A program made the position numbers and the translations under genes. The notes under the pieces were generated by a model. It did not search any database. It was not told the DNA's origin and saw nothing but the letters and a program-made list of their open reading frames with translations. Positions 235 through 23,964 of a DNA stretch of 40,150 nucleotides are shown here, piece by piece. Positions within the stretch are counted from its first letter, which is position 1, and the number at the start of each line of letters is the position of its first letter. The DNA comes from a virus (lineage: Duplodnaviria; Heunggongvirae; Uroviricota; Caudoviricetes), in the IMG/VR virus record IMGVR_UViG_2718218304_000002; one strand, 5' to 3'.

Positions 235-550
235 TATAATAAACTTACTTTTTTATCATTTTTCCACTTTAACAACATTTTGCTCCACTTTTCCACGACC
301 AAACAACTTGAAATCTGGTTAAAATAACACGCAACACTATTCTTCTTCCTTGAGTCCGCCCGGAACTCGAAAAACAAACCGAGTTAAAGCCATTTTTCAC
401 AAAATCGATTTTGGGTCTCACCAAAATTACGGGGTTGTATACGCATTCGTTTATTTTCGAACGTGTACATACAAATATGCACAAAAATAATCATAATTAT
501 TTTCTGAGATGCATTATGATATGAACACCAATTTCGTATAGAGTCTCACT

Positions 551-1141
551 ATGTCTCGAATTTTTGCTTACTGTCGGATATCAACGCTGGATCAGACCAC
601 CGAAAATCAACGCCGGGAAATCGAAAGTGCAGGTTTTAAAATCAAACCTCAGCAAATAATCGAAGAACACATTAGCGGCTCAGCAGCAACCAGTGAGCGT
701 CCTGGTTTTAACCGGTTGCTTGCTCGCCTGAAATGTGGTGATCAATTGATTGTGACAAAACTGGATCGCCTTGGTTGTAATGCAATGGATATCAGGAAAA
801 CAGTGGAACAACTGACCGAAACAGGTATCAGAGTGCATTGCTTAGCATTGGGTGGCATTGACCTGACCAGTCCAACAGGAAAAATGATGATGCAAGTAAT
901 TTCAGCAGTCGCTGAATTTGAACGAGACCTTTTACTTGAACGCACTCATTCCGGGATAGTAAGAGCCCGCGGCGCAGGGAAACGTTTTGGTCGACCACCT
1001 GTGTTAAATGAAGAACAGAAACAGGTGGTATTCGAACGAATTAAGTCAGGTGTAAGTATAAGTGCCATTGCCCGGGAATTCAAAACCTCGCGGCAAACCA
1101 TTTTAAGAGCCAAAGCAAAACTTCAGACACCTGACATATAA
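551..1141 (+). CDS. pinR: Serine recombinase / DNA invertase (Pin/Gin/Hin family)
   Basis: 196-aa ORF with N-terminal resolvase catalytic region (YCRISTLDQ...) and C-terminal HTH; convergent with a tfa gene as in Rac pinR. Confidence 0.85.
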
Positions 1142-1238
1142 AAAATAATCTCGGTGTGAGATGCTTTACGTCTTCCAAGCCCCCTTCCTTGCCGTAAATG
1201 GAAAGATACATCTAATTATAGAATTTATATGTTTTACC

Positions 1239-1753
1239 CTACGGCAGTGCTGGCCATTCAATATCCTGTGCAGTTGACGTATCAACACGGTTCAGCAATA
1301 CCCGATACTTTTTCCATGCTTCCAGCAACGAGATTTCTTCCTCCGTTGCAATTTCCAGATCTGCAGCATCCTGAAGCGGCGCAATATGCTCACTGGCTAC
1401 CTGCATCAGGTTGTTTTTTGTTTCTTCCGCCTCCCGGATCCGGAACAGTTTTTCTGCTTCCGTATCCTTCACCCAGGCTGTGCCGTTCCACTTCTGAAAC
1501 TCCCCTTCCGGCGATAACCAGGTAACATTTTCCGGTAACGGACCGAGTTCAGAAATAAATAACGCGTTGCCGGAAGCCACGTCATAAACCGTTTTACCCC
1601 GATGATCTTCAACGAGATGCCACGATGACTCATCACTGTTGAAAACAGCCACGAAGCCAGCCGGAATATCTGGCGGTGCAATATCGGTACTGTTTGCTGG
1701 CAGACCTGTATGAGGCGGAATATATGCATCACCTTCACCAATAAATTCATTAG
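1239..1753 (-). pseudogene. Tail fibre assembly protein (Tfa), 5' end replaced by IS911 terminal sequence
   Basis: ORF 1239..1802 translation has Tfa-family core ([30 protein letters not shown]...); its first ~16 codons (1754..1802) are encoded by the IS911 terminal repeat, so the native 5' end and the upstream tail-fibre gene are missing. Confidence 0.7.
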
Positions 1754-1825
1754 TGAAGTGGTTTACTGAATTTGGCCACCTGAACAGAGGTGATATGCTC
1801 ACCTCAGAACAACACAGGTGCCATA

Positions 1826-3801
<1,976 letters not shown>

Positions 3802-3873
3802 TATGGCACCTGTGTTGTTCTGAGGTGAGCATATCACCTCTGTTCAGGTGGCCAAATTCAGTAAACCACTTCA

Positions 3874-4056
3874 GTGGCTTGTGGCTGGTTTTTTCCTCCA
3901 GGCCTGACGGCTGAATACCTCACTGATCGCTTCTTTGACTGCGCCAGCTACTGGCGCATTAATCCTTTCGAATTGCTGAATATGCCGATCAGTGAAATTC
4001 CCTTACTGGTCAGTCAGGCAAACAGGATAGAGCAGGAGAAACGCACACATGGCTGA
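3874..4056 (+). pseudogene. 3' remnant of a tail gene (possibly a tail assembly chaperone) truncated by IS911
   Basis: 60-codon ORF starts with GTG immediately at the IS911 boundary and ends 8 bp into the tape-measure gene; position suggests the gene upstream of tape measure. Family not recognised. Confidence 0.3.
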
Positions 4057-5884
4057 ATTTGAGCTTAAGGCGTTGATCACCGGTGTCGACAGGCTTTCTC
4101 CCGCGCTGTCGAAAATGCAAAAGAAAATCCGGGGATTTAAACGCCAGGCGGAAGAAGCGTCACAGGGTGGGCTGGCGCTTGGTGGCGGACTGGCAGCGGG
4201 TCTGACGCTTTCCCTGAAATCTTATGCCGATCAGGAAAACGCCGCCACCGGGCTGAAAGTCGCCATGATGGATGCGAACGGCGAGGTTGGAAAGAGCTTT
4301 CAGGACATCAATAAACTGGCTATTGGCCTGGGTAACCAGCTACCCGGTACAACGGCTGATTTCCAGAACATGATGCAGATGCTGGTGCGTCAGGGGATCC
4401 CGGCAGAAAACATTCTGGGTGGTGTGGGTAAAGCGACAGCTTATCTTGCGGTACAACTGAAAAAAACACCGGAAGCGGCTGCTGAGTTTGCTGCAAAGAT
4501 GCAGGATGCTACCGGAACGGCGTCAGAAGACATGATGGGGCTGTTCGACACTATCCAGAAGGCGTTTTATCTGGGTGTTGACGATACCAACATGTTGTCC
4601 TTCTTCACTAAAACCAGCTCTGTTCTGAAGATGGTGAACAAGGACGGTCTTCAGGCTGCACAGAGCCTTGCCCCCATCAGCGTCATGATGGATCAGATGG
4701 GGATGAACGGGGAGTCGGCAGGTAACGCCCTGCGAAAAGTTATCCAGTCCGGATTAAGCGTTAAGAAAATCAGGGACGTCAATAAAATCATGGCCCGCCA
4801 GAAACTCGGGGTACAGCTCGATTTTACTGACGGCAAAGGAAGTTTTGGCGGTCTTGATAACATGTTCAGGCAACTGGCAAAGCTGCGAAAACTGACCGAC
4901 GTTAAGCGAACAGGTGTACTTAAGGCAATATTTGGTGATGATGCCGAAACCCTTCAGGTGGTCAATGCACTAATCGATAAAGGAAAGGATGGCTACGATC
5001 AGATCCAGCAGAAGATGAATAAACAGGCCAGCCTGAATAAACGTGTTCAGGCCCAGCTTGGTACGCTGTCCAACCTGTGGGAGGCAATGACGGGGACCGC
5101 AACTAACGGCCTTGCGGCTATTGGCGGCGCATTTTCTGGTGACGCCAAAAATATCACGCAATGGCTGGGGGAGTTAGGGGAAAAATTCACGAAGTTTGCG
5201 GATGAAAATCCCCGGGTTATTCGCGGCGTCGTCGGGCTTGCTGCCGGTCTTGCGATTCTGAAACTGGGATTGATGGGCGTTGGCGGTGCCATCAGTATTG
5301 TCAGCAGGATCATGTCGATGACGCCGATTGGAATGATTGCGACGGCGATAGCCCTGGCTGCGGGATTAATTATCACTAACTGGGATGTTGTCGGACCTTA
5401 TTTCAAGAAGCTCTGGGAAACCATTGGTCCTTATTTTGAGGCTGGCTGGGAACTTCTGAAGATGGTTTTTGCCTGGTCGCCGCTGGGGATGGTAATCAAT
5501 AACTGGGGACCGGTTGTTAAGTGGTTTCAGGATATGTGGGACAAACTGAAGCCAATTATTGAGTGGTTTACCGACAGTTCCGGTGACACGGTCGATGCCA
5601 TTAACTCTGCGCAGTGGGGCGCGGGTGCTTATGATGCTTATGGGACGGGAATACCGGCACGGGGATACACACCTTATCAGGCGGTAGATCCGGCTCAGTC
5701 AAACAACGCCTCCGGTGCCACAGGCCCGAATCCCTTCATGATTAACAAAGCTTCTGCGCCAAAAGTTGATGGTGAGATCAAGGTCTCTTTTGTGAATTCG
5801 CCTCCGGGTATGCGGGTTATGGAAACGCGATCCAGCGGTTTTGATGTCAGCCATGATGTTGGCTATACGCGCTTTGGCAGGTAA
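4049..5884 (+). CDS. Phage tail tape measure protein
   Basis: 611-aa ORF, Ala/Gly-rich with coiled-coil-like N-terminal half and hydrophobic central segment; followed by Mu N-like and P-like genes. AGGAG 10 nt upstream of ATG. Confidence 0.75.
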   Translation: MAEFELKALITGVDRLSPALSKMQKKIRGFKRQAEEASQGGLALGGGLAAGLTLSLKSYADQENAATGLKVAMMDANGEVGKSFQDINKLAIGLGNQLPGTTADFQNMMQMLVRQGIPAENILGGVGKATAYLAVQLKKTPEAAAEFAAKMQDATGTASEDMMGLFDTIQKAFYLGVDDTNMLSFFTKTSSVLKMVNKDGLQAAQSLAPISVMMDQMGMNGESAGNALRKVIQSGLSVKKIRDVNKIMARQKLGVQLDFTDGKGSFGGLDNMFRQLAKLRKLTDVKRTGVLKAIFGDDAETLQVVNALIDKGKDGYDQIQQKMNKQASLNKRVQAQLGTLSNLWEAMTGTATNGLAAIGGAFSGDAKNITQWLGELGEKFTKFADENPRVIRGVVGLAAGLAILKLGLMGVGGAISIVSRIMSMTPIGMIATAIALAAGLIITNWDVVGPYFKKLWETIGPYFEAGWELLKMVFAWSPLGMVINNWGPVVKWFQDMWDKLKPIIEWFTDSSGDTVDAINSAQWGAGAYDAYGTGIPARGYTPYQAVDPAQSNNASGATGPNPFMINKASAPKVDGEIKVSFVNSPPGMRVMETRSSGFDVSHDVGYTRFGR

Positions 5885-5944
5885 TGAAAAATTAATCTGT
5901 TAATGAGTCCCACTCCGGTGGGATTTTTTATGTACGGAGTTTAT

Positions 5945-7273
5945 ATGACGTGGAAAGACAGACTTCAGGACGCGTCATTTCGCGGTGTGCCGTTTAAGGT
6001 TGAAGAAGAAAGTGCGGGAACCGGTCGTCGTGTGGAAACGCACGAATACCCGAACCGCGACAAACCCTATACCGAAGACCTGGGGAAAATCACTTTCCGC
6101 CCGTCCATCACAGCTTATGTGGTGGGAGATGACTGCTTTGACCAGCGCGATCGCCTGATTGACGCGCTGAATAAACCCGGTCCCGGCACGCTTGTCCATC
6201 CGACTTACGGTGAGCTGAAAGTCTGTGTTGACGGGGAAGTTCGGGTCAGCACATCGAAGAGTGAAGGGCGTATTGTCCGCTTTGACCTGAAGTTTGTCGA
6301 AGCGGGAGAACTCTCTTACCCCACTTCAGGTGCGGCGACGGCGCAGACGCTGATGTCATCCTGTTCTGCACTGGATGACTGCATCAGTGACAGCTTCAGT
6401 GGTTTCAGTATCGATGGCGTGGCAGATTTTGTGCAGAACGACGTCGTCGGTAATGCCAGCACAATGCTTGGGTATGTTTCTGATGCGATGAAAGTGGTGG
6501 ATTCTGCCGTATCGGATGCCGCCAGGCTGTTGCAGGGGGATATCTCGGTACTTCTGCCGCCGCCATCGTCAGGCAAAAATTTCGTTGAGCAGGTGCAGAA
6601 AATGTGGCGTACCGGGAAACGCCTTTATGGTAACGCCAGCGACCTGGTCACCATGATCAAAACGCTTTCCGGTGTCAGCCTCGGCAGCGATCTGCAACCG
6701 CGCGGCGTCTGGAAAACGGACAGTAAAACCACCGCCACGGCGACGCAGCAGCGTAACGTGGTTGCCAGCACCCTTCGTACGACCGCAATCAGCGAAGCGG
6801 CGTATGCCGTCACCCGATTGCCTGCGCCAACAATTTCTGCGGTGATGCAGAATGCCGCAGTGGGGCAGGCAACAACACCCGCGCAGAGCACTGGCTGGCC
6901 TTCCGTCACGCATCCGGCACTGAACAATGCACCGGCGGTGAAAAACACGGTTGACCTGCCGACGTGGGAAGAACTGACTGACATTCGCGACACACTGAAT
7001 ACGGCAATTGATAAGGAGTTGTCCCGTACAACCAGTGATGCGCTGTTTCTGGCGCTGCGCCGGGTGAAAGCAGATCTGAATGCGGATATCAACACGCGCC
7101 TTGAACAGTCTGCACGGATCATTCAGCGCACGCCGGATGAGGTTTTACCCGCGCTGGTGCTGGCGGCGACCTGGTTTGATAACGCGGCGCGTGACGCGGA
7201 CATTATCCGGCGTAATGCCATTACACATCCCGGCTTTGTGCCGGTGATCCCTCTGAAGGTGCCAGTGCAATGA
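5945..7273 (+). CDS. DNA circulation protein (Mu N / gp43-like)
   Basis: ORF 5903..7273; start at MTWKDRL (5945) has GGAG 5 nt upstream. Assigned by recalled similarity to the Mu N family and by position between tape measure and the P/D-like gene. Confidence 0.6.
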   Translation: MTWKDRLQDASFRGVPFKVEEESAGTGRRVETHEYPNRDKPYTEDLGKITFRPSITAYVVGDDCFDQRDRLIDALNKPGPGTLVHPTYGELKVCVDGEVRVSTSKSEGRIVRFDLKFVEAGELSYPTSGAATAQTLMSSCSALDDCISDSFSGFSIDGVADFVQNDVVGNASTMLGYVSDAMKVVDSAVSDAARLLQGDISVLLPPPSSGKNFVEQVQKMWRTGKRLYGNASDLVTMIKTLSGVSLGSDLQPRGVWKTDSKTTATATQQRNVVASTLRTTAISEAAYAVTRLPAPTISAVMQNAAVGQATTPAQSTGWPSVTHPALNNAPAVKNTVDLPTWEELTDIRDTLNTAIDKELSRTTSDALFLALRRVKADLNADINTRLEQSARIIQRTPDEVLPALVLAATWFDNAARDADIIRRNAITHPGFVPVIPLKVPVQ

Positions 7274-7705
7274 ACGACAATGTCACGCTACGGGTAAATG
7301 GCCGGGAGTGGAATGGCTGGACATCGGTGCGCATCGGTGCCGGTATTGAACGGCTGGCGCGGGATTTCAGTGTGGAGATCACCCGCCAGTGGCCGGGTGA
7401 TGAGGGTATCACCACGCTTCAGCCGCGCATTAAAAACGGTTCAAAAGTGGAAGTGCTGATTGGTGATGAGCTGGTGATCACCGGCTGGGTGGAGGCGACG
7501 CCCGTTCGTTACGATGCCCGTTCGGTCAGCACCGGTATTGCCGGACGTAGTCTGACGGCTGACCTGATTGACTGTGCAGCCGAACCGACACAGTTTAACG
7601 GACGCTCGCTGGTGCAGATTGCGCAGGCGCTTGCTGCGCCTTTCGGCATTGAGGTGGTGAACAGCGGTGCGCCGTCGGGTGTTATTCCTGATGTTCAGCC
7701 TGATC
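7270..7705 (+). pseudogene. Mu P (gp44) / P2 D-like tail protein, N-terminal ~145 codons, truncated by IS66
   Basis: Start overlaps N-like stop (ATGA). Native reading ends ...GVIPDVQPD at 7705, where the IS66 terminus GTAAGCG begins; the rest of ORF 7270..7827 is IS sequence. Confidence 0.6.
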
Positions 7706-7742
7706 GTAAGCGTGCAGCAAGAACCGTATTGACGGGGATGTG

Positions 7743-9280
7743 TTATTCAGTCGGCAGTGCTACGCGCCAGGGGAGCAGTTCGCCGACCCGGTTTATCGGC
7801 CAGTCGGCTATGACGTCAAGGACATAGCGGAGGTAGCTTTCTGGCTCCACTCCGTTCAGTTTGCACGTCCCGATCAGGCTGTACAGCAGCGCTCCCCGCT
7901 CTCCTCCATGATCCGAACCGAAGAACAGGTAGTTTTTGCGGCCCAGACTGACCATCCGCAACGCATTTTCAGCGATGTTATTGTCCGCCTCAGCCCAGCC
8001 ATCATCTGCATAGTACGTCAGCGCCGGCCACTGGTTCAGGGCGTATGCGAACGCTTTCGCCAGTTCTGAGTGTCGCGACAGGGTTTTCATCTTTTCACGC
8101 AGCCAGCTTTCCAGGGATTTCAGCAGCGGTTTCGTTTTCAACTGACGTTCGGCAAGGCGCTGCTCCGCCGTCATTCCCCTTATCTCTGCCTCGATGGCGT
8201 ACAGTTCGCCGATCCGTTTCAGCGCTTCCTCCGTCAGGGCTGACGGGGTGCGAACGTGCACATCGTGGATTTTACGGCGGGCGTGAGCCCAACAGGCGGC
8301 TTCCGTTATCCGGCCATCCCGGTACAGCTCGTTGAACCCGGCGTATGCATCCGCCTGCAGTAACCACTGAACCCCGCAAGATGGGTCTGCGGATGGATGC
8401 CTTTTCTGTCCGGGCTGTAAGCGAACCACACCGCCGGCGCCAGCGTTGACCCGGCGTTACGGTCGTCACGAACGTAGGTCCATAACCGCCCGGTCTTCGT
8501 TTTCTTATTGCCTGGCAACAGCACCGGGACAGGCGTGTCATCAGCATGGAGCTTACCGTCAGTCAGCACATAGTCCTGAAGCGCTTCTTCCAGCGGTGAC
8601 AGTAGCCGGCAGCATGCATCCACCCAGCCCGACAGCAGTGAACGACTCAGCTCCACGCCCTGGCGGCCGTACATTTCAGACTGGCGGTACAGCGGGGTGT
8701 GCTCTGCATACTTTGAGATCAGCACGCGGGCCAGCAGCCCCGGTCCTGCGATACCCCGCTCGATGGGCCGTGAAGGCGCGGGGGCCTGCACGATGGCATC
8801 GCACTGAGTACAGGCATGCTTTTCACGTACAGTCCGGATAACCCGGAAGGCGCTGCGCATCAGCTCCAGCTGTTCGGCGGCATCCTCACCCAGATAGCTC
8901 AGCGAGCCTCCACATTCCGGGCAGCATGACGCTGCCGGCAGCAGCCGTTTTTCATCGCGGGGGAGTGATTCGGGGAACGGTTTGCGGGTGCGGGTTTGAC
9001 GCAGCGGGCGCTGCACGGCCGGGTCGTCAACCCGACCGGTAAGGGTATCACTTTCTTTCTGAAGTGCCTTCAGGTCAGCTTCCATCTGTGCGATACGACG
9101 GGAGACTTTTTCCGAGCGGCTGCCGAAGTTCATCCGGCGCAGCTTATCCAGCTGTGCCTGCAGATGGTCTATTTCGCGTTCACGCTCGTTCAGCTTTTCC
9201 TGCAGGGCACGGTTCAGCGCCTCCTGTTCGGCAAGGAGACGTTTCAGTGCATTGATATCGTCAGGAAGTGAGCTGCTCAT
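7743..9280 (-). pseudogene. IS66 transposase TnpC, split by a frameshift
   Basis: N-terminal ORF 8306..9280 and C-terminal ORF 7743..8429 overlap in different frames; frames switch near 8360 (...GFSGY / LQADAYAGF...). One added base would restore a single ~510-aa ORF. Confidence 0.8.
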
Positions 9281-9328
9281 ACCGGGTATATTACCAGGCT
9301 CATTCAGCGTCGACCAGGATAAAGAGGC

Positions 9329-9676
9329 TTACAACATAGTCAGGGACGTAAGCAGTCTTTTAGGCTGCCGCCAGTCGATACCTTCCAGCAGCATCGCCAG
9401 CTGTGCCGGTGTGAGGAACACTTTGCCATCCCGGGCTGACGGCCAGGCGAAGCGGCCGCGCTCCAGCCGTTTGGTCAGCAGACACAGTCCATCGCCGGTA
9501 GACCAGAGGAGCTTTACCTGACTGCCATTACGCCCACGGAAGATAAAAACGTGACCTGACATCGGATCGTCTTTCAGCGTCGTCTGCACCTTTGCCGCCA
9601 GGCCGTTGAAGCCGTTTCTCATATCGGTGATGCCAGCGACCAGCCAGATCTTTGTCCCTGATGGTAATGGGATCAA
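9329..9676 (-). CDS. IS66 accessory protein TnpB (Orf2)
   Basis: 115-aa ORF recognised as IS66 Orf2-like; overlaps tnpA stop (ATGA). Confidence 0.8.
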   Translation of the reverse strand: MIPLPSGTKIWLVAGITDMRNGFNGLAAKVQTTLKDDPMSGHVFIFRGRNGSQVKLLWSTGDGLCLLTKRLERGRFAWPSARDGKVFLTPAQLAMLLEGIDWRQPKRLLTSLTML

Positions 9677-10077
9677 CGTTTGAGCTCCCGTATCAGCAGG
9701 TTCAGGATATTTTCGCTGATGGCACCATTCAGACGGAGTGATCCGTGCCGGAACGTCACTTCACAGCTGATATTGAGTGATTCAGGTGTCGCAGCAGCTA
9801 CAGGTTGTGACCGGGGGGAGGTTGTAGGGACAACATCTTCGGCATCAAGTGTTATCGGGAGCAGCTCAGGCACGTTGTTTTCTGTTGTTGAAGGAGGACG
9901 TAGTTTTCCTTCGCGCCAGTACTGGCGCCACTTGAACAGCAAATTATCGTTGATCCCATGCTCACGAGCGAGTTGCGCTACGGAGATCTCTGGTCGATGC
10001 GAGAGTTCAACCATTTTGATTTTGAACTCAACGGGATAATTAGGGCTTTTTTTACGCACTGCGGTTAATGATTTCAT
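9673..10077 (-). CDS. IS66 accessory protein TnpA (Orf1)
   Basis: 134-aa ORF with N-terminal HTH region, first gene of the IS66 operon. Confidence 0.75.
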   Translation of the reverse strand: MKSLTAVRKKSPNYPVEFKIKMVELSHRPEISVAQLAREHGINDNLLFKWRQYWREGKLRPPSTTENNVPELLPITLDAEDVVPTTSPRSQPVAAATPESLNISCEVTFRHGSLRLNGAISENILNLLIRELKR

Positions 10078-11261
10078 GGATTGCGTCCACCATATTTGGT
10101 GTCCACTATTCTCTCAGGGAATTTCAGGATCTGCCAGACGGTGCTGAGACGACGCTTACCCATTGTATAAAGCGGCGAGTTTTCCTGCATTCGCTCTTCA
10201 TTAGTCTGATCAACAGATTTGGTGGATGTATTTTCAGCACGCAGAAGTTTAGCGCCGGCATGACGCATCTGATTTTCCAGCTTCTCAAGTGATGTTTCGC
10301 CAGATTCTATCGCTGCGCCACTATGTTCAACATATTCGAGGCCATTTTTTGTTCTGTCCTCAAAAATCGTAGCGGTGGATGCACCAACCGTCAGTTCTTC
10401 ATTCCTGTCCAGCCCGTAGGCCACCAGCAATGGAACGCGGGCAACATGAAGAATATTGTCCTGCTCGCTCTGGCTTTGCCAGTGCTTGATATTCAGCAAG
10501 CCAAGATTAAGCAATGGCGGTGTACCACGCATAAATCCTGTTTTCTTCGTGTACAGTGTTACCAGAGGAATATCATCACGGCTGGTATTCCATGACTCAT
10601 GAAGCGTCCAGACAGATTCGCCATTAGTGCCTTCGCTACGTCGATAAATTTCAACTCGACGGGGCATAATATGGCGGATCTGCTCCACCTTCTTCTGCCC
10701 GAAATCATCACCATCAATAATGATGACCTCTTTTATACGCAAATCAGTGAGAACAACTTTCCCTTTTTCAACTTTCGATTTCCATCCAATAACCTGGCGT
10801 GGATTCAGCATCGTAACGTACGGACGACCACCGGTCGCGTTTTCATCGGCTTTTGTCCGAATCTCTTTCATATCCGTTCGTGGATAGTCCACCAGCGCAT
10901 GTGCCACACCATACTGAAATGCGAGGCTGAAAAATTGCTGCGCCCACACATCCAGTCGGCTCCCCTCCATGTCGATATTTTCTGCATATTCCCTGATTTT
11001 TGCCGGCGTTTCCTCACTCAATACTGTCGGCTCTGCAAATATGCGCCCAATATTTTGCTTGATGCTTTCTTCATACACAGGAAGTAGCGTAGCCACAGAC
11101 AGGCGTTTTTTATAAGCGTCTTCATCTTCGTTAGGCCATTTTGGGAGATAATTTTCCCCCTGCCTGCGCATTTCAAGCGTACCGCCCATCAGTGCGTCGT
11201 TAATATCCCACGCCTCCAGCATATCGTTATAGTCGAGGTTGGGTGTTGATATATCAGCCAT
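10074..11261 (-). pseudogene. Putative phage portal protein, C-terminus truncated by IS66
   Basis: ORF lies directly downstream of terminase large subunit; native sequence ends at 10160 and the last ~28 codons are IS66 terminal sequence. Portal call rests on gene order and size, not a recognised motif. Confidence 0.45.
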
Positions 11262-11263
11262 AA

Positions 11264-12574
11264 TTAAATCCGAAGTGATGTGACTCTTCCGGTCGGTTTG
11301 ACAATAGGGAATTGCTTAACGATGAAATAACCTCCGGCATCATTCGGGTGATCATTGCCAGATTTTTTATCAGGCTCCCCCTTCTCATCCCAGACCTGTT
11401 GCTCCAGAGATTCGGCATATAACGGGCAACGCTTCACATTAACTTTATAGCGACGCTCACCATTGGCATTGCAGAACATTGCATTCATTGAGTTAACGCG
11501 ATCTTTTACTGGCGGGTTCGAGCTGTTCACCACAACGTTAAAACCAGCCTGCTTAAGCTGGGCTATATCCGTCGTACTTGCGTTACTTGATTTTCTGGAA
11601 TCCCCGGAAGCATCTGGATAAATATAAATTTCCCTCACTTTCCGGTAATCATTCCCATCATACAGCCAGAAGCGTTCTTTAATGATGCGGATCATATCCG
11701 GCGTATCGTAGGCATTGATGATTTCAGTTACCGCACATGGAAGCCCCAAACGCAGCACATGGACGATTCCCGCCATCTTTCCAACGTTAAAATCCATCCC
11801 AATATAAATCGGCTCCCCTGGCTGCTCCACTTCTTCGCAATTATTCAGTTTCCGGTCAAACTGATGGTAAACAGTACCACTTGTCAGGTTAGTAAACTGT
11901 CCTCGAAGATAGGCTTTAATCAGCTCTGGAGGGTATGATTCAAGAAGCGAAGGAATGTAATCTGCTGGCAGGTTCTTTTCATTATCGAAAGTAGATGCCT
12001 GCACCAGACCATACAGTGAGGCCAGCTCTGTTTTTTCACGCACGGCTTTAACAAACTGCTCGTAGACAAATTTGAATCCTTCCGGCGTGGTTGTAACGTC
12101 AATACCGTTGCGAAGTCCATCAATCTTATAACGCATACGTGCAATTATCTTGCGCCACGCCGTTCTGGCTTTTTCCTTCGGCAAAATGTCCAGTTCATCC
12201 ACCAACGCATTACCAATTTTGAAACCGACGATCGTTTGTGGCTTCTCCATCGATCTGCAGATAGTGGTTCCCCGATACTGGCGTCCGTAATAAAAGTGAA
12301 CCTCTTTATTTCCCTCATTAATTTTTACGTTCAATCCCCAGTCAGCAGCAACTTCTTCCACTGTAGGGTAAAAAATATCGCGAATTTGGGGATACGTTGG
12401 CGCAAAATATCCCTGATTTATACCTGGATGCTCCCAAATCCCCTTGCATATGCCGCCACACCCAACCCATGTTTTGCCCGAGCCAAAACCAGCAATATAG
12501 GCTTTAAATTTATGGAGCATTGAAAGAAATCGCGCCTGAGGCACATTAAGCGTCGGAGAGATCATCTTCATCAC
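11264..12574 (-). CDS. Terminase large subunit
   Basis: 436-aa ORF with Walker A (AGFGSGKTW) near N-terminus and nuclease-like C-terminal half; follows the terminase-small candidate. Confidence 0.85.
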   Translation of the reverse strand: MMKMISPTLNVPQARFLSMLHKFKAYIAGFGSGKTWVGCGGICKGIWEHPGINQGYFAPTYPQIRDIFYPTVEEVAADWGLNVKINEGNKEVHFYYGRQYRGTTICRSMEKPQTIVGFKIGNALVDELDILPKEKARTAWRKIIARMRYKIDGLRNGIDVTTTPEGFKFVYEQFVKAVREKTELASLYGLVQASTFDNEKNLPADYIPSLLESYPPELIKAYLRGQFTNLTSGTVYHQFDRKLNNCEEVEQPGEPIYIGMDFNVGKMAGIVHVLRLGLPCAVTEIINAYDTPDMIRIIKERFWLYDGNDYRKVREIYIYPDASGDSRKSSNASTTDIAQLKQAGFNVVVNSSNPPVKDRVNSMNAMFCNANGERRYKVNVKRCPLYAESLEQQVWDEKGEPDKKSGNDHPNDAGGYFIVKQFPIVKPTGRVTSLRI

Positions 12575-13640
12575 TCCTTACTCTGGCATCAACCACATTA
12601 ATATTGATCGCCACAGGCTGGGGATGTTCATTATCTTCCACCGTTTCGATCTCTTTGCGCAGCTTCTGGTTTTCCATTCTGCGCCGTTCAATTTCCAGTT
12701 CCTGTAGCCGCTTATCTGCACATAAAGCCCCGCCAGCAGAAAACAAACGCAACAATTCACGCCGGGTGGCAGCCTTATCCTCCAGCAGGATCTCAACGCC
12801 GAATTTTCCGAATTTTGCCCCTGCATATAATTGCCGCGCATCCCCATCAAGCAGAGTGGTATCAGCCATATAAAGCTGTCCCGTTCCCTCACCGCAGCAC
12901 TTCGGGCAGTCCGGATTGGGTATGGCGTTATCAACAAAGCCGAGGCCTCCATATTCCGGTTCGGGGTTGCCATCTCTGGAAGCCTGCGCCGCTGCCTTGT
13001 CGAATTCTGCTATATCGCGCCACTGGTAGAGATGATTCTCGCCCCAGCAATAACGGCAGTTAACACGGCGAAATTGTGCAAGCTGATTGGGGTCGGCCAG
13101 GACAATAGCCATCAACTGACTCACTAGTAAATCCAGGTCTGCGGTATAGCGTTTCTGGTACTGATTGCGGAAGTAGCTGATAGCGCGAAAAACCCTGGCA
13201 TTTCTAAGCATACGACTGGCGTTGCTGTTAGCTGTCGCACCTTGCCCCTCATAACCGGCTAGTCGGTACGCCTCTGTCGGCTTTTTACCCTGAGCAACAA
13301 GCATCGCAAACTTAGCCTGCTGGTCAGAAATGCCGAATTCATCGGGACAGAACGAAAATTCCTCCGCGTCGCCCTCATTCAGGCCCGCATCGAATACTGG
13401 CTTTTTTTCCTGAGATTTCTCGTTCCGCTTTTGTGCAGTCTGCGCAGATTTTTTCTGCGCACTTTTTTGCGCAGTTTTGCACATTTCTGTCTGCGCATTT
13501 TTCGGAGTTTTTTTGATGTAACGACGGGCTGTTGCGTAATTCAGTCCCCTTGCTTCACACCATGCCACCGGAGATATACCGGAGCGGGTGTATTCAGCAA
13601 TATACTCCTGCTGCAACGCCCCCCAGTCCGGTCTGCTCAT
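12546..13640 (-). CDS. Putative terminase small subunit
   Basis: 364-aa ORF with N-terminal HTH-like segment, Lys/Gln-rich linker and C-terminal Cys-rich region; 29-nt overlap with the large-subunit start. Confidence 0.5.
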   Translation of the reverse strand: MSRPDWGALQQEYIAEYTRSGISPVAWCEARGLNYATARRYIKKTPKNAQTEMCKTAQKSAQKKSAQTAQKRNEKSQEKKPVFDAGLNEGDAEEFSFCPDEFGISDQQAKFAMLVAQGKKPTEAYRLAGYEGQGATANSNASRMLRNARVFRAISYFRNQYQKRYTADLDLLVSQLMAIVLADPNQLAQFRRVNCRYCWGENHLYQWRDIAEFDKAAAQASRDGNPEPEYGGLGFVDNAIPNPDCPKCCGEGTGQLYMADTTLLDGDARQLYAGAKFGKFGVEILLEDKAATRRELLRLFSAGGALCADKRLQELEIERRRMENQKLRKEIETVEDNEHPQPVAININVVDARVRSDEDDLSDA

Positions 13641-13643
13641 CAG

Positions 13644-13895
13644 TTAGTCCTGATTTTTATCCACCCTGAGTAGTTCGCGCAGAGCAAAGGCATCCCCTTT
13701 TCTGGCAAGCTTAAACAATGCCGCTCGTAACTCGGCTTCACCTTTCGCTCTGCCCTTACGGATGGCCGCATAAAAATCTGTCATTGCTTCCCGATTTGCT
13801 TTCAGTCGGTTCAGATCAACATCCAGAACGTCAGCGATTTGTTGTGCAGTCATCCGGCACGCTGCCAGAGACTCGACTTTCGAATACGGAATCAT
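13644..13895 (-). CDS. Small basic phage protein, function unknown
   Basis: 83-aa ORF just upstream of terminase small subunit; start uncertain (internal Met at 13853). Confidence 0.35.
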   Translation of the reverse strand: MIPYSKVESLAACRMTAQQIADVLDVDLNRLKANREAMTDFYAAIRKGRAKGEAELRAALFKLARKGDAFALRELLRVDKNQD

Positions 13896-14763
13896 TTGTC
13901 ACCCCCATTGATATGCAGGGTGTCTTCTTCCTGTATTTTTCGTGAAGGATTTTTACTGCAGCGTTGTTCCAGGTGACCTGATGGTGAATGCGTTTATGGC
14001 TGGCACCCATCAGTGAGATTTTTACGCACGACGGCGCATACATGACGGAGTAAAAACTTTTAACGTAGGTTCCGGAATCCAGATACAGCTCGGTCATTCC
14101 GCCGCTGTTTTTCTGCGTCTGTTTCTGCCCTAACTGGACAGCACCGATCGTCATAAACAATTCACCACAGCGACCGAGATTCGTGTACGTATTCACATCC
14201 TCGTTAATGCGCCCCATGAATGAGAACGGTCGATCAACCGAACAGATAAAGCTGTTCATTGCCTTGCGTTTCACCCACGAAGCATGGCCGCCATTGTCAC
14301 CAAGAAAATCCCCTCCCTGCGACATAGCGATGGAAAGAGCAGGTATTGATTCGTAGTACGCCAGCATTTCAGAAAGGATCGCATCCAGTTTCCTTATCGG
14401 AAAATAGGCCTGGTCATAGTTGCGATCCACCCGAAACTGGAACTCGTGATAATCATCATCGAGCTGAATGAAGTATTTACACCCGACCAGTTTTGCCTGG
14501 TCGAAACAGGCATTACGGGCGTAAAAAATTGAGCGGCGGTCACAGAAATTATCGGCTTCGTCAAAACGACTGGCGATATCGGCTTTGGAAAACACCAGCA
14601 CCTGTTCACCAAATTCAGCCATGTACTGATGCCGTGTCTTATCTTCATCATCAACAACGATAAAAATTTTCCCGGTATAGCCAGCACGACGCAACGTCCG
14701 GTAAGTCAGAACTTTGTCCGGTCGCCCGTGAGTCAGAATAAAGGCGCAAAAATCATCACGCAT
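13831..14763 (-). CDS. Hypothetical phage protein (YdaY-like position), possible DxD-type nucleotide-sugar transferase
   Basis: ORF 13831..14784; start MRDDFC (14763) overlaps the upstream ParB-like stop (ATGCGTGA). Acidic motifs IVVDDEDK and QLDDDYHEF suggest a GT-A-like enzyme; this is a guess. Confidence 0.5.
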   Translation of the reverse strand: MRDDFCAFILTHGRPDKVLTYRTLRRAGYTGKIFIVVDDEDKTRHQYMAEFGEQVLVFSKADIASRFDEADNFCDRRSIFYARNACFDQAKLVGCKYFIQLDDDYHEFQFRVDRNYDQAYFPIRKLDAILSEMLAYYESIPALSIAMSQGGDFLGDNGGHASWVKRKAMNSFICSVDRPFSFMGRINEDVNTYTNLGRCGELFMTIGAVQLGQKQTQKNSGGMTELYLDSGTYVKSFYSVMYAPSCVKISLMGASHKRIHHQVTWNNAAVKILHEKYRKKTPCISMGVTNDSVFESRVSGSVPDDCTTNR

Positions 14764-15547
14764 ATTCCTCCTCCTCACCACCATGCATGATCTCCACCAT
14801 GCGCTGCGTCATCCGGACAAATCCATTTTCAATAGCCTGCTGATAATCAATGATCACCAGCGCCGACTCCTCGAAAAAACACTGAATTTCAGCGGGGGCG
14901 TGAGCGTAATAGTCCGCAATTCTGCTGAAATTAAACACCGTGTGACGTTCTGCCGCACACAGGAGGAATTTCTCAATATCAGGCTCAAGGGACGCCGAAC
15001 GTATCCGGCTGATCAGCTCCTGAGTTTTCGTATCGTCGTACAGTTCACTGATATCCGGTTTACCGCCCGACGGCTCATAAACAGGCGTATCAATTTTCGT
15101 CGTATACGGCTCCTCCTCATTTCCTGTACCGGGCAAAACATCCGTCAACAGTTCATCAATTTCTGTCGGGATGAAGCCTGTCAGGGAGACATCAAAATCA
15201 GCATTGATTAGGTCCGACAGCTCCATCCGCAACAGATCTTCATCCCAGCCAGCATTCATCGGCAGGCGATTATCTGCCAGGCGGTACGCCTTTTTCTGCT
15301 CATCCGTCAGGCCAGACAGAACAATGACCGGAACAGAATCCATTTTGAGCATTTCAGCCGCCATAACACGACCGTGACCCGCAATAATTTCGCCCTTTTC
15401 GTCAATCAGCACCGGATTAGTCCAGCCGAATTGCTTAATACTTTCTACCAGTTGTGCCACCTGCTCAGTACTGTGCGTCCTGGCGTTGTGCGCATACGGT
15501 GACAATTCTTGTAATGGGCGATAGACTATCTTTAATTTCTCGCTCAT
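14756..15547 (-). CDS. ParB-like nuclease domain protein
   Basis: 263 aa; N-terminal ParB/Srx-like region (...NPVLIDEKGEIIAGHGRVMAA...), acidic C-terminus; matches the Rac ynaK position after trkG. Confidence 0.65.
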   Translation of the reverse strand: MSEKLKIVYRPLQELSPYAHNARTHSTEQVAQLVESIKQFGWTNPVLIDEKGEIIAGHGRVMAAEMLKMDSVPVIVLSGLTDEQKKAYRLADNRLPMNAGWDEDLLRMELSDLINADFDVSLTGFIPTEIDELLTDVLPGTGNEEEPYTTKIDTPVYEPSGGKPDISELYDDTKTQELISRIRSASLEPDIEKFLLCAAERHTVFNFSRIADYYAHAPAEIQCFFEESALVIIDYQQAIENGFVRMTQRMVEIMHGGEEEEYA

Positions 15548-15684
15548 ACAGCCTTGCTTTATGAATAAAACGCACCCCAGCAGCCAGTGCTACTGGGGAC
15601 GGAGGTGTTGCTGGTAAAGTTAGGTATTGGATCAATGAGTGAGTCAACATAATATTAAACTCACAATTATAAATCAGCCATATA

Positions 15685-17142
15685 TTAGGAGCGCCAAAAA
15701 AAACCTGAAAACAATATAATAACAGGATAAATTTCAAGGCGACCAAGAATCATAGCTATGCACATTAAACATTTTGCAATGTCATTAAGCACTCCGAATG
15801 ACGATGCAGTAGCCCCAAAACCTAATCCCATATTATTAATACATGCAGCCACTGTTGCAAATGATGTAAGAAAATCATATCCCATACCATTTAACACCAG
15901 TATAAAAAACACCGTGAAGAGAGTATAAAGAAAAAAGAAACTCCATACAGACCTCATTACACGATCTGTAACTATCTTCCCTCCTACATTTACACTCAAC
16001 AACGCTCTGGGATGAGAAAGCTGATTTATCTCGTGTTTGCTTTGTTTGAAAAGTATAAGAAATCGAAGTGACTTAATTCCACCACAAGTTGAACCTATAC
16101 ATCCCCCAAAGAAACTTGACAACAGCAAAAACACTATCGTGTGCGTGGGCCAACTTGCATAATCCTGCGTAGCTAAACCATTATCAGTGAGCATGGAGCT
16201 GGCAAGAAAAAACGAATGAATAAAACTTCCATGCAAGTCATACATACCTATATGCCAGACCTGGAAAGAGGTAACAATGATCACCCCTAAGGCTATTAAC
16301 AGAAAGAAACGAAGTTCAATATCTCTGATTAAAGGTTTTATCGTTTTCCTGCTAATAACAATATACCAAAGAGTGAAGTTGAAAGCCGATAGCAGGGAAA
16401 AAGAACCAGCCACCAGCTCAACCAAATAGTTATTAAAATATCCGATACTCTCGCTATGAGTTGAGAAACCACCAAGCGAAACTGTGGAAATCCCGTGACA
16501 AATAGCATCAAACAAAGGCATTCCTGCAAGTCTATAACAGACAATACAAGCAATACCTAATAAAGAATAAGTTATCCACAGTGTCCGTGACGTATCGGCC
16601 AGGCGGGGAGTGAGTTTGTCATCCTTAAATGGCCCCGGCATTTCTGACTGATAAAGCTTTGCACCACCAATACCCAATAATGGCAATACAGCAACCGCCA
16701 GAACAATAACTCCTAAACCACCTATAAAATTTAACTGTGACCGATAGTACAAATATGCCCGAGGTAATGAACTAACATCATCAATTACAGTTGCTCCTGT
16801 TGTTGTTATTCCAGAAACCCCTTCAAACAGAGCATCAATGAACGTTAAATTAAGTTCTGAGTCAATCCATAAAGGGAATGCACTAATAACAGAAAACAAA
16901 ATCCAAAACATTACAATTATAATAAACCCATCACGGGTACGTAATTGAATGCCAGATTTCTTAGTTGTATACCACGCTCCGCCACCAATGCAAAAAAATA
17001 TAACGAAAGTTATAAAGAAAACAAACAGGCTTTTTTCTTTATAAAACAATGCTACAACCATTGGTGGCAACATTGAAAGACTATAGAGCCAAACCAGGAA
17101 CCCACACATATGAGTAACAACTCTTACATGAGATGTATTCAT
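15685..17142 (-). CDS. trkG: Trk-system potassium uptake protein (TrkH/TrkG family)
   Basis: Polytopic membrane protein with repeated GxG-containing pore-loop motifs; 485 aa from MNTSHVRVV; AT-rich coding sequence; same position as trkG in Rac. Confidence 0.85.
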   Translation of the reverse strand: MNTSHVRVVTHMCGFLVWLYSLSMLPPMVVALFYKEKSLFVFFITFVIFFCIGGGAWYTTKKSGIQLRTRDGFIIIVMFWILFSVISAFPLWIDSELNLTFIDALFEGVSGITTTGATVIDDVSSLPRAYLYYRSQLNFIGGLGVIVLAVAVLPLLGIGGAKLYQSEMPGPFKDDKLTPRLADTSRTLWITYSLLGIACIVCYRLAGMPLFDAICHGISTVSLGGFSTHSESIGYFNNYLVELVAGSFSLLSAFNFTLWYIVISRKTIKPLIRDIELRFFLLIALGVIIVTSFQVWHIGMYDLHGSFIHSFFLASSMLTDNGLATQDYASWPTHTIVFLLLSSFFGGCIGSTCGGIKSLRFLILFKQSKHEINQLSHPRALLSVNVGGKIVTDRVMRSVWSFFFLYTLFTVFFILVLNGMGYDFLTSFATVAACINNMGLGFGATASSFGVLNDIAKCLMCIAMILGRLEIYPVIILFSGFFWRS

Positions 17143-17279
17143 ATCTAAATATTCTTTCAATTATAACCACCTTGCTGCAATATTATGATTATACTGTATA
17201 AAATTTAACTCCTCTTAGATCTTACTTCACTGTTCCTTATGAAACAATCATCAAAATGAATCATATTGTAGTTAAGATT

Positions 17280-17744
17280 TTACTTTAAACACTGCTCGGT
17301 TATGTATTGCTGAGCACCTTCAAGTTGGGCCTGCATCATTACCAGTCGTTCCCGGAGGGTGAAATAATCCCGTTCAGCGGTGTCTGCCAGTCGGGAGGAG
17401 GCTGCATTATCCACGCCGGAGGCGGTGGTGGCTTCACGCACTGACTGACAGACTGCTTTGATGTGCAACCGACGACGACCAGCGGCAACATCATCACGCA
17501 GAGCATCATTTTCAGCTTTCGCATCAGCTAACTCCTTCGTGTATTTTGCATCGAGCGCAGCAACATCACGCTGACGCATCTGCATGTCAGTAATTGCCGC
17601 GTTCGCCAGCTTCAGTTCTCTGGCATTTTTGTCGCGCTGGGCTTTGTAGGTAATGGCGTTATCACGGTAATGATTAACAGCCCATGACAGGCAGACGATG
17701 ATGCAGATAACCAGAGCGCAGATAATCGCGGTTACTCTGTTCAT
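17280..17744 (-). CDS. Spanin inner-membrane subunit Rz (i-spanin)
   Basis: N-terminal TM segment then coiled-coil periplasmic domain; start MNRVT overlaps endolysin stop; contains the embedded Rz1 frame. Confidence 0.8.
17339..17524 (-). CDS. Spanin outer-membrane lipoprotein Rz1 (o-spanin), embedded in Rz in +1 frame
   Basis: 61-aa ORF with lipobox (VVGC) and proline-rich mature region ([19 protein letters not shown]), wholly inside Rz. Confidence 0.8.
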
Positions 17745-18238
17745 TGCTGACCCCACAAACAGATTTCACGCTCAATCTCACGACGAGTCATGAGACCTTT
17801 CCATTGCTTACCGCCAGCATATGTCCAGCGACGTAGCTGATCACATGCGCCTTTGATATCGCCCTGGTTTATTTTGCGAAGAAGCGTCGATGTTCTGAAA
17901 TTGCCAGCACCCACGTTGTAAACGAATGAGTAAAGAGCGCCGCGCGTTGTTTCCGGTATATCGACTTTGATGTACGGGTTAATTTGTCTGGCGACCGTGG
18001 CAAGGTCTTTATTCAGGAGGGCTTTGCATTCTGCTTTGGTATACGTTTTACCGAGCATGATGTCTTTTCCTGTATGCCCGTGACATACAGTCCATACACC
18101 AACAATATCTTTGTATGGTATGTAGCTGACACCTTCCAGACCATCGTTACCACTTGGGCCAGTGATTAACACTGATGCTATAGCAATTGCTCCGCCACCA
18201 ATAGCAGCAGCAACGGCTTTTCGTAATGATGGAGGCAT
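17741..18238 (-). CDS. SAR endolysin (phage-21 R-type lysozyme)
   Basis: 165 aa with N-terminal signal-anchor-release segment ([20 protein letters not shown]) followed by a lysozyme domain; matches recalled phage 21 R. Confidence 0.85.
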
Positions 18239-18453
18239 TATTCACCTCTCGCAGCCTTGCGCTTATCTTCTTTAATCTTGAAATAAAGGTTTGTCAGGTA
18301 CGTCAGCAGGCCAAATACCAGGCTACCCAGCACACCGATTGCAGCCCACTGTGACGGAGTTACTCTATCGAGCAACTGTAAAAACCAGTAGCCAGCACTG
18401 CCTGCGGAGGTGCCGTAGGCAATGCCTGTTGAAATTTTGTCCATGGATTTCAT
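18238..18453 (-). CDS. Pinholin (phage-21 S-type, class II holin) with dual-start MKSM
   Basis: Within ORF 18238..18510 the sequence [26 protein letters not shown]... matches the S21 pinholin; two Met codons three codons apart give antiholin/holin forms. Confidence 0.85.
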
Positions 18454-18550
18454 AGCCTCACCTCCGCACGGAACGGATGGCATAGTTATTATGTGTAGGC
18501 TTTCAGACACATCAATCAGAGCCTTAATTGATATATATGCTGGAGACGAT

Positions 18551-18580
18551 GCAATATAAAAAGCTCGCCGTAGCGAGCTA
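18551..18580 (-). terminator. Rho-independent terminator candidate downstream of the TolA-like lipoprotein genes
   Basis: Hairpin AGCTCGC-CGTA-GCGAGCT (18562-18579) followed on the - strand by a T-run. Confidence 0.45.
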
Positions 18581-18704
18581 ATAAAATGTATTTCTCTGAT
18601 ATTATGTTTATTTGTATTAGCTCAGACTTGACATCACAGGTTTCGTATATAGAACATCATCAAATCTGTCAGTTTGCTATGAATGAGATATAGTAATTGA
18701 AGAG

Positions 18705-19100
18705 CTAACCTCGCATGTCAAAGCCAGATTTCTGAAAATCTCTGTAGACTTCCGGATTGTTGAAGGCCGGAAATTTGGCTTTATGAGCTGCGGACTTTAT
18801 CGCTTCGCAATAGGCTTTATCACCGTTACTGGTAGATATTTTTAACGCCGTGCCATCCTGAGAGAATTCCATATGCAACCTGCATTTTTTCCCTTTCCAG
18901 TTATGCGGCTCATCAAGTTTGGCATTAATTGCAGCTCTGATTCCCCGCGCTTGCGCCCCCCATTCATCCTGATCATCCCAGCGTCCTGAACTGCAACTAC
19001 CTGTAGCAGTAGTTTTGTGGCAATCTGAAGGGTGTAAAGGTGTGCATCCCGCAACAAAACCGACCCAAAAAGTCAACATAACGATTTTCTTTAATCCCAC
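18705..19100 (-). CDS. Lipoprotein with TolA domain-III-like C-terminal domain (paralogue 2)
   Basis: 131 aa; signal peptide with lipobox VAGC; C-terminal ~85 aa align with the recalled TolA C-terminal domain (GKKCRLHMEFSQDG / YCEAIKSAAHKAKFPAFNNPEVYRDFQKSGFD). Confidence 0.6.
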   Translation of the reverse strand: MGLKKIVMLTFWVGFVAGCTPLHPSDCHKTTATGSCSSGRWDDQDEWGAQARGIRAAINAKLDEPHNWKGKKCRLHMEFSQDGTALKISTSNGDKAYCEAIKSAAHKAKFPAFNNPEVYRDFQKSGFDMRG

Positions 19101-19250
19101 TTCTTGCTCCTCAATCCATTAAAATCTCAGCAATAGTAGTTGTTACGTCCGCCACTGGCTCAGAGCTGACTATCCGCTAAATTTAGCTCAGTGCCGTAGC
19201 TGTGTCAGAACAAACCTAAGCCGAAACCGTTTATTACAAAACAATAAATA

Positions 19251-23952: not shown

Positions 23953-23964
23953 CCGCTGGTCCTC

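Follow-up and report, generated by a model that had tools for sequence, protein, structure and literature searches.

On sequence comparison, the IS66-family element in the window (the whole 40,150-nucleotide stretch that was analysed) is a hybrid of two ISEc22 copies and not a simple insertion, and the structure around it is probably a long-read assembly chimera, the true locus in Escherichia coli strain D4 being like that of its sister strain D9. Positions 1 to 30159 of the window were identical to NZ_CP010143.1 (strain D4), and the window corresponds to the Rac prophage locus of that strain. The D4 record is presumably a long-read-only assembly, judging from its accession series and from its indel-only differences. 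A search of the literature found no paper with a relevant mention of CP010143 or CP010152, and the mentions of ISEc22 that were found were only incidental.

The element itself is an ordinary ISEc22, a common and well-annotated E. coli insertion sequence. In records annotated as ISEc22 family, copies matched positions 7706 to 10159 at 99.9 to 100% over all 2,454 bp and in many contexts, and more than 1,000 E. coli records showed at least 99% identity to it, also in varied contexts. These full-length matches set the ends exactly at GTAAGCG...CGCTTAC, and perfect 8-bp duplications at the identical ends of 5/6 other sampled copies confirmed them. When the two ends were aligned, the terminal 8 bases were identical and approximately 15 of the first 21 matched, giving imperfect inverted repeats that begin 5'-GTAAGCG. 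Pfam searches found the consecutive genes tnpA (HTH), tnpB (IS66 Orf2-like), and tnpC (DDE_Tnp_IS66 with zinc-finger and leucine-zipper regions), the last scored on the intact 512-aa version from the sister copy at thrW (DDE_Tnp_IS66, E=5e-107). NCBI PGAP annotation names ISEc22 in thousands of E. coli records, with the same three genes and ends and, in most copies, an 8-bp duplication; the copy in the window differs by its unmatched flanks and by a pair of single-base indels, one causing the tnpC frameshift. IS66/IS679-type elements, reportedly described by Han et al. in J Bacteriol in 2001, have three ORFs, imperfect inverted repeats from GTAAGCG, and 8-bp duplications; they share the organisation of the window element and are not known to differ from it beyond sequence divergence. 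The element carries little biological weight. The coordinates of all features are collected in Table 1.

Table 1. Features of the window around the ISEc22 element (positions are those of the whole window)
Feature	Position	Strand	Details
Spacerless perfect palindrome, 2 x 1,060 bp	1754..3873		first 1,060 bp of ISEc52 twice, head to head at 2813/2814
Unique part of the duplicated block	3874..7705	+	tape-measure gene 4049-5884, DNA-circularisation gene 5945-7273, 5' part of gpP; no mismatches to thrW
5' part of Mu GpP/gp44-like baseplate gene, 145 of 360 codons	7270..7705	+	Pfam GpP-like_1st E=3.5e-24, Gp44-like_2nd E=1.3e-13
GCCTGATC, half of the gpP::ISEc22 target duplication	7698..7705		same 8 bp on both sides of the thrW copy in D4 (L002) and D9 (L004)
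Complete ISEc22, IS66 family, 2,454 bp	7706..10159	- (genes on minus strand)	full-length matches 99.9-100%
Terminal inverted repeat, tnpC-distal end	7706..7731		begins GTAAGCGT
tnpC, DDE transposase	7743..9280	-	two overlapping ORFs, 9280-8306 and 8429-7743
1-bp deletion frameshifting tnpC, GTA(C)ACC	8362..8363		C missing relative to intact copies, at about codon 307 of 512
tnpB, 115 aa	9329..9676	-	Pfam TnpB_IS66 E=1.6e-38
tnpA, 134 aa	9673..10077	-	Pfam HTH_Tnp_1 E=9e-12; annotated WP_000839179.1
1-bp insertion, GGG vs GG in other copies	10117..10119		non-coding end upstream of tnpA
Terminal inverted repeat, tnpA-proximal end	10134..10159		ends ACGCTTAC
CCATTGTA, half of the portal::ISEc22 target duplication	10160..10167		same 8 bp on both sides of the Rac copy in D9 (L003)
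5' part of DUF4055 portal gene, Rac-type prophage, 367 of 468 codons	10160..11261	-	Pfam DUF4055 E=8.6e-36

The 8-bp direct target duplication of the IS66 family was absent from the window copy, which has GCCTGATC on its left and CCATTGTA on its right. Since other copies with the same ends do carry duplications, its absence reflects the history of this copy and not the type of element. Both 8-bp sequences were found duplicated elsewhere. In the thrW prophage remnant of D4, an ISEc22 copy inserted in the gpP-like gene is flanked by GCCTGATC on both sides, and in the Rac prophage of D9 a copy inserted in the portal gene is flanked by CCATTGTA on both sides; CCATTGTA was present once at the matching site of an intact portal gene. 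These two parent insertions are the evidence that the window element is a hybrid. The preliminary description, made from the sequence alone, had assigned the element to the IS66 family, placed its ends at 7706 and 10159, reported that it lacks a target duplication between two unrelated truncated genes, and proposed a search for copies carrying the matching half-duplications. The family and the ends were upheld by the full-length ISEc22 and Pfam matches, the duplication is indeed missing at the exactly fixed ends, the search found both half-duplications (at thrW in D4 and at Rac in D9), and the flanks are a gpP-like baseplate gene on the left and a DUF4055 portal gene on the right. The length of the gpP-like product (360 aa) is that of the ORF rebuilt from the thrW locus after removal of the IS. 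The DUF4055 gene is a portal gene by position, being so called because it adjoins the large terminase gene; in strain 190, the intact gene lies between those for the large terminase and a minor head protein. The two flanking genes come from separate prophages at separate chromosomal sites, namely thrW and the Rac site between ompN/uspF and trkG.

Comparison with the two parent loci delimited an inserted block. Positions 2814 to 10159 of the window were identical, with zero mismatches, to positions 11114 to 18460 of the thrW locus of the same genome (L002), while positions 1 to 2813 and 7706 to 26260 equalled the Rac locus of D9. Two repeats, ISEc52 and ISEc22, thus form the exact bounds of the inserted block. 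It comprises 7.35 kb, made up of part of ISEc52, the tape-measure gene, the DNA-circularisation gene, the 5' part of gpP, and ISEc22, with Pfam PhageMin_Tail and DNA_circ_N matched in its unique part. A misplaced block with repeats at its edges and an identical counterpart elsewhere in the genome is what an assembly chimera would leave. In D9, the order at Rac is tfa, ISEc52, 58 bp of the portal gene, ISEc22 with CCATTGTA on both sides, and the portal gene. The left junction of this arrangement (ISEc52, the 58-bp portal remnant, and the ISEc22 end), used as a query, was found only in D9 and was absent from D4, and the D4 record likewise held no reciprocal hybrid copy consisting of ISEc52, the 58-bp remnant, ISEc22, and the 3' part of gpP. 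Among 5,426 complete genomes, none but D4 contained the gpP'-ISEc22-portal' hybrid junction, and an exact look-up of the 395-aa portal-IS fusion protein in public assemblies, those made by Logan from sequencing runs among them, returned the D4 record only. The block occurs a third time in the D4 record, beside gspL' and plasmid-like resistance DNA, again with unmatched flanks at ISEc22. The ISEc22/IS4321' junction of this third copy is unique to D4, and no parent simple insertion for it (ISEc22 in IS4321 with TTTAATCT) was present in the genome collection.

The left edge of the duplicated block is the palindrome, whose centre shows no microhomology with native IS sequence. As a single-piece match it was found in D4 alone among the 5,426 genomes, and an ORF across its centre was not on record in public assemblies, including Logan. 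ISEc52 lies in opposite orientations at the thrW and Rac loci, so neither homologous recombination nor ordinary repeat overlap can yield this junction. A read running down one strand and then back up the other can make it, and a spacerless perfect palindrome is thus a junction unlikely in biology but within reach of a fold-back read. Fold-back reads whose arms abut have been documented as an artefact of long-read sequencing, and they can tangle assemblies (PMC12870357). The central GAATTC had suggested a template switch at a pre-existing palindrome; this was rejected because native ISEc52 reads CTGAA/GAACG, so that GAATTC was created by the junction.

The D4 record is anomalous elsewhere as well. 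Approximately 179 kb of extra DNA, duplicated and plasmid-like, lies between two 16S genes in rrnE. This segment holds a zero-mismatch inverted duplicate running from gspL' through the rps/spc/alpha operons to 16S, a junction at which the rRNA spacer meets IS26 midway along its length, and repeats of 7.6 kb and 2.3 kb with 100% identity. It could be a genuine integrated R-prime plasmid, in which case plasmid-mediated shuttling of the block would be plausible.

Two genuine transpositions took place in the D4/D9 lineage. One ISEc22 insertion into the gpP-like baseplate gene of the Mu-like prophage remnant at thrW produced the GCCTGATC duplication, and another into the portal gene of the Rac-type prophage produced the CCATTGTA duplication. 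In the window copy, the thrW and Rac loci are joined somewhere inside the 2,454 bp of identical ISEc22 sequence. We infer that the assembly path may have gone astray in ISEc22 and come back to the left flank of Rac via a fold-back (palindromic) chimeric read inside ISEc52. The real Rac prophage of D4 would then run tfa, ISEc52, 58 bp of the portal gene, ISEc22 with CCATTGTA on both sides, and the portal gene, and consensus errors would account for both the extra G and the frameshift in tnpC. Because the palindrome is impossible by homologous recombination and the record contains other large zero-mismatch duplications, the join is more probably the work of the assembler than of the cell. This origin of the join is inferred; what the element is, both parent junctions, how far the duplicated block extends, the palindrome, and the record's further duplications are demonstrated by the sequences. 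Some points count against a chimera. The ISEc22/IS4321' junction of the third copy, being unique to D4, indicates that D4 truly differs from D9 in IS content. Overlap assemblers rarely triplicate a block. Fold-back reads are also scarce in modern PacBio data, three such data sets having contained very few to essentially none (PMC12870357).

A real, non-reciprocal IS-mediated event in the cell is unlikely, although several observations would suit it. A break at the Rac ISEc52/ISEc22 cluster would have been repaired by break-induced replication or gene conversion, the end invading another ISEc22 (at thrW or in a plasmid-like element with the block), synthesis proceeding through gpP', the DNA-circularisation gene, and the tape-measure gene into ISEc52, and closure following by a fold-back or an illegitimate join to the inverted ISEc52 at Rac. 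The crossover in ISEc22 would be fully homologous, the hybrid flanks agree with two documented parent copies, and the third block copy beside plasmid-like DNA could act as a mobile donor. There was also ample recombination substrate, with 34 strand-counted ISEc52 matches in D4 (∼17 copies) and 32 in D9 (∼16 copies), and five to six ISEc22-like matches in each. The event nevertheless requires two IS copies to be joined bluntly at one and the same position into a palindrome with no spacer, whereas fold-back priming should leave a loop or spacer, and its product, a 2.1-kb perfect palindrome, should be a constant target of SbcCD, which in E. coli cuts the hairpin formed by a 246-bp interrupted palindrome at every replication (PMC3315005). 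It further requires three 7.3-kb block copies without substitutions in a strain that otherwise equals D9 in unique DNA, and the structure is known from one assembly only. That the record is correct throughout is quite improbable. A natural dog isolate would then carry the 2.1-kb spacerless palindrome, three zero-mismatch copies of the 7.3-kb block, and an integrated R-prime plasmid with second, inverted S10/spc/alpha operons, and break-induced replication involving fold-back and template switches would have spread the block. If true, the structure would offer a rare natural view, in wild E. coli, of fold-back replication with template switching (fold-back inversion and repeat-hopping) and of a perfect palindrome this long.

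Homologous recombination between IS copies is textbook and yields hybrid target duplications, and the preliminary description had proposed recombination of this kind. Taken strictly, the proposal means reciprocal exchange between the thrW and Rac ISEc22 copies, which are inverted relative to each other on the chromosome. The result would be a 1.19-Mb inversion in the whole or part of the culture, with the assembler mixing isomers. Such an inversion would yield exactly the gpP'-ISEc22-portal' junction, and the assembler's need for a chimeric read back to tfa could be accounted for by a mixed population. We nonetheless regard it as very improbable: the reciprocal junction is not in the D4 record, the thrW copy retains GCCTGATC on both sides, the D9-type left junction is missing from D4, and gene order on either side of both loci is otherwise as in D9. 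Direct transposition of ISEc22 without target duplication, or deletion between two copies in one ancestral prophage, is scarcely credible. The missing duplication is all that favours either; each junction is, base for base, a pre-existing insertion junction at another locus, and deletion within one prophage was ruled out by flanks derived from the thrW and Rac-site prophages. The intact Rac-type prophage, moreover, has a siphovirus-type tail module with no gpP in the stretch examined. Of the earlier proposal, then, the hybrid origin from two copies stands, and reciprocal exchange or deletion between copies in one prophage does not, given that the thrW copy keeps both halves, the left junction is absent, and the 7.35-kb block is duplicated. 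As in known IS recombinants, each flank of the window copy carries half of the duplication that belongs to a different copy, and the crossover falls within the IS; unlike them, the window shows no reciprocal junction and no deletion, and the other edge of its duplicated block is a palindrome that homologous recombination cannot make. An assembly chimera, the reading preferred here, shares with fold-back long reads (PMC12870357) abutting arms, a junction at an arbitrary point and not at a repeat end, and a link between two unconnected paths. Documentation of that artefact comes chiefly from Nanopore data and concerns reads rather than finished bacterial assemblies.

The case calls for caution. 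A missing target duplication resembled a recombination scar with real parents, yet in the same record there are a palindrome without a spacer, a block in three copies, and ∼179 kb of DNA that is duplicated or plasmid-like, for which reason structural inferences from it are not trustworthy without the reads. Among the features to be treated with such caution are the apparent inactivation of the transposase and the 395-aa "DUF4055" fusion protein WP_349356560.1.

The ISEc22 copies at thrW in D4 and at Rac in D9 were identical, and the window copy differed from both at two single-base indels only, the extra G bringing its length back to 2,454 bp. Over the ∼35 kb compared, D4 and D9 differed at 11 sites, 10 of them single-base indels; all 11 lay inside or at the edge of IS copies, and none in the ∼26 kb of unique DNA. 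Since single-base indels of this kind occur only within IS copies in the two assemblies, the tnpC frameshift is probably a consensus error. The transposase had been described as frameshifted, which is accurate for the sequence as given, where a 1-bp deletion splits tnpC, but probably not as a real inactivation. In D9, a frameshift is carried by the thrW ISEc22 copy instead.

The element at 7706-10159 (2,454 bp) matched, over its full length, copies listed by NCBI as 'IS66-like element ISEc22', a known, ordinary IS. Matches were found in 5,738 E. coli records, more than 1,000 of them at ≥99% identity, and spanned widely differing contexts on both chromosomes and plasmids. Its first bases are GTAAGCGT and its last bases ACGCTTAC, forming imperfect inverted repeats. 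Perfect 8-bp target duplications were observed at exactly these ends in five of six other copies fetched, and the coordinates in the preliminary description are therefore exact. The further observations made there also held in every detail, namely the unequal flanks (left GCCTGATC, right CCATTGTA), the two truncated neighbor genes, and the split tnpC. Genes for tape-measure and DNA-circularisation proteins precede the truncated baseplate gene, and the truncated DUF4055 gene adjoins the large terminase gene; in strain 190, an intact relative, the DUF4055 gene is followed by minor head protein, P22-type capsid, and tail-tube genes. RefSeq lists a 395-residue 'DUF4055 domain-containing protein' (WP_349356560.1) at window 10074-11261 on the minus strand, which is the truncated portal gene fused by read-through into the ISEc22 end. 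This fusion was present in the D4 record only, and its reading frame depends on a doubtful extra G at 10117-10119. An inverted repeat of 19 nt (89% complementary, CGATCAGGC) between the gpP target site (7688-7706) and the inside of ISEc22 (7871-7889) is probably due to chance.

Coordinates of features in the window and in the D4 record
Feature	Coordinates	Strand	Remarks
5' part of Mu GpP/gp44-like baseplate gene	7270-7705	plus	first 145 codons of 360-aa protein
tnpC	7743-9280	minus	split in window; intact sister copy: Pfam DDE_Tnp_IS66, E=5e-107
tnpB	9329-9676	minus	Pfam TnpB_IS66
tnpA	9673-10077	minus	Pfam HTH_Tnp_1
5' part of DUF4055 gene	10160-11261	minus	first 367/468 codons
TPR protein	24695-25744		Rac prophage in window
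560-aa DUF262 protein	26272-27954		Rac prophage in window
About 179-kb segment	NZ_CP010143.1 4,638,948-4,817,751		L024, L014, L015 (stretches of the D4 record)

Window 1-30159 was identical to E. coli D4 (NZ_CP010143.1) at the Rac prophage site, which has ompN-uspF-pinR and trkG-ydaV as its neighbors. A further prophage locus in D4, a remnant at thrW (tRNA-Thr) on the downstream side of proA, has the same baseplate gene split by ISEc22 with GCCTGATC on both sides; removal of ISEc22 and one repeat restored a 360-aa baseplate open reading frame. At the Rac locus of the sister strain D9 (NZ_CP010152.1), the portal gene is split by ISEc22 with CCATTGTA on both sides, and D9 also carries the thrW insertion. 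The search for IS66 copies with matching half-duplications, proposed in the preliminary description, therefore found them at D4 thrW and D9 Rac, and the window ISEc22 consists of the left junction of one genuine insertion and the right junction of another. Out of 5,426 complete genomes, the coverage expected for either insertion was reached in D4 and D9 only. At D9 Rac, merely 58 bp of portal sequence survive to the left of ISEc22 (12489-12546 of L003, the Rac locus of D9), followed by ISEc52. An ISEc52-associated deletion, subsequent to the ISEc22 insertion, therefore took the Rac-type head and tail genes up to the tail-fibre assembly gene.

Comparison of window 2814-10159 with the thrW locus of D4 (L002, 11114-18460) revealed zero mismatches, with three 1-bp gaps as the sole differences, and window 1-2813 and 7706-26260 equalled the D9 Rac locus. 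These alignments indicate that, in the D4 record, a 7.35-kb block has been added at Rac, comprising the inner 1,060 bp of ISEc52, the tape-measure and DNA-circularisation genes, the 5' part of gpP, and ISEc22. At Rac, it takes the place of the outer ISEc52 part and the 58-bp remnant. The recombination between IS copies proposed in the preliminary description was borne out in part, as a hybrid join of two copies. The D4 record does not have the form of a reciprocal exchange, as the thrW ISEc22 of D4 keeps both duplication halves, the D9-type left junction at Rac was looked for in D4 and was absent, and the block was gained by duplication.

Window 1754-3873 is a spacerless perfect palindrome (2 × 1,060 bp), in which the first 1,060 bp of ISEc52 occur twice and meet head to head at 2813/2814. 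Among the 5,426 genomes, D4 alone matched it in a single piece. ISEc52 lies in opposite orientations relative to ISEc22 at thrW and Rac. Native ISEc52 reads ...GTCTGAA-GAACG... at the junction point (hyphen), and therefore has no pre-existing palindrome or microhomology there. Homologous recombination always runs on along a repeat in the same direction, and so could not have made the head-to-head junction, and a loop would be expected after fold-back priming in vivo. In E. coli, an interrupted palindrome of only 246 bp already formed a hairpin that SbcCD cut at every replication (PMC3315005). The signature at 2813/2814 is exactly that of a long read in which both strands of a library fragment are read in succession, and such fold-back reads, with arms that abut directly, have been described as a source of assembly-graph tangles (PMC12870357).

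The ISEc22 copies at D4 thrW and D9 Rac were identical to each other, and the window copy differed from them at two places only: a missing C at 8362/8363, which frameshifts tnpC, and the extra G at 10117-10119. In D9, the frameshift annotation falls on the thrW ISEc22, which has a 1-bp insertion of its own at another place. D4 and D9 were compared over about 35 kb and differed at 11 sites, 10 of them 1-bp indels; every site lay inside an IS copy or at its edge, and about 26 kb of unique DNA contained none. The pattern is that expected of consensus errors in the repeats of a long-read-only assembly, as we infer the D4 assembly to be. Single-base indels clustered in ISEc52, with six in one thrW copy (L002 10925-11940 versus L004, the D9 thrW locus), and one lay at an IS boundary in the window (1753/1754).

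A third copy of the block was located at 4.773-4.781 Mb in D4 (NZ_CP010143.1 about 4,773,282-4,780,819; L009 6680-14215 and L014 28283-35820, both stretches of this record). It contains ISEc52, the tape-measure and DNA-circularisation genes, the 5' part of gpP, and ISEc22, again with unmatched flanks (GCCTGATC and TTTAATCT); a parent insertion for the TTTAATCT junction was not found in any other record. The copy is bordered by gspL' and a truncated IS4321, beyond which lies resistance DNA (glutathione synthase, IS26, TEM-1), and sits within a segment of about 179 kb that lies inside rrnE, with a 16S gene on either side. Plasmid-like resistance DNA with ParA, H-NS, floR, two tet(B), and TEM-1 is present in the segment, as is an inverted chromosome copy extending from gspL' across the S10/spc/alpha operons as far as yrdA-16S; over the 13.85 kb compared with its native counterpart at 3.85-3.893 Mb, this copy has no mismatches. 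The segment represents either an R-prime plasmid that has integrated or a plasmid contig that was misjoined. About 22 bp past the 16S gene, at L024 38950-38975 (NZ_CP010143.1 about 4,638,949-4,638,970), the rRNA spacer runs directly into the middle part of a truncated IS26, an illegitimate junction that is not at an IS end. The resistance region also contains a 7.6-kb inverted repeat (L014 1799-9440 versus 15748-23389) and a 2.3-kb direct repeat (L014 1-2280 versus 13468-15747), both 100% identical, and two inverted IS903 copies bracket one copy of the 7.6-kb segment; these repeats suggest either a pair of inversion isomers or a plasmid assembly that was extended too far. D9 is shorter than D4 by 184 kb, and none of the anomalous D4 structures occurred at Rac, at thrW, or at the gspK-gspL::ISEc52 junction, the three loci inspected in D9.

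The unmatched flanks of the window ISEc22 do show that two IS copies have been joined. It is fairly likely that the assembler, not the cell, made this join, because the inserted block is bounded by repeats and has an identical counterpart elsewhere in the genome, the closing junction is explained by a fold-back read and poorly by biology, the record has several other anomalous duplications, and the structure is unique to one assembly. A real non-reciprocal event, with break-induced replication and template switching, perhaps from a plasmid-borne copy of the block, appears unlikely. An inversion isomer that really existed in a fraction of the culture, and that the assembler rendered wrongly, seems more improbable still. 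The main value of the finding is as a warning about the D4 record, the element being ordinary either way.

Elsewhere in the Rac prophage, window 22653-27954 contains an IS421 insertion (22653-23771) and a hok/gef gene, together with the TPR and DUF262 proteins, and we speculate that this part of the prophage carries defence genes or accessory cargo.
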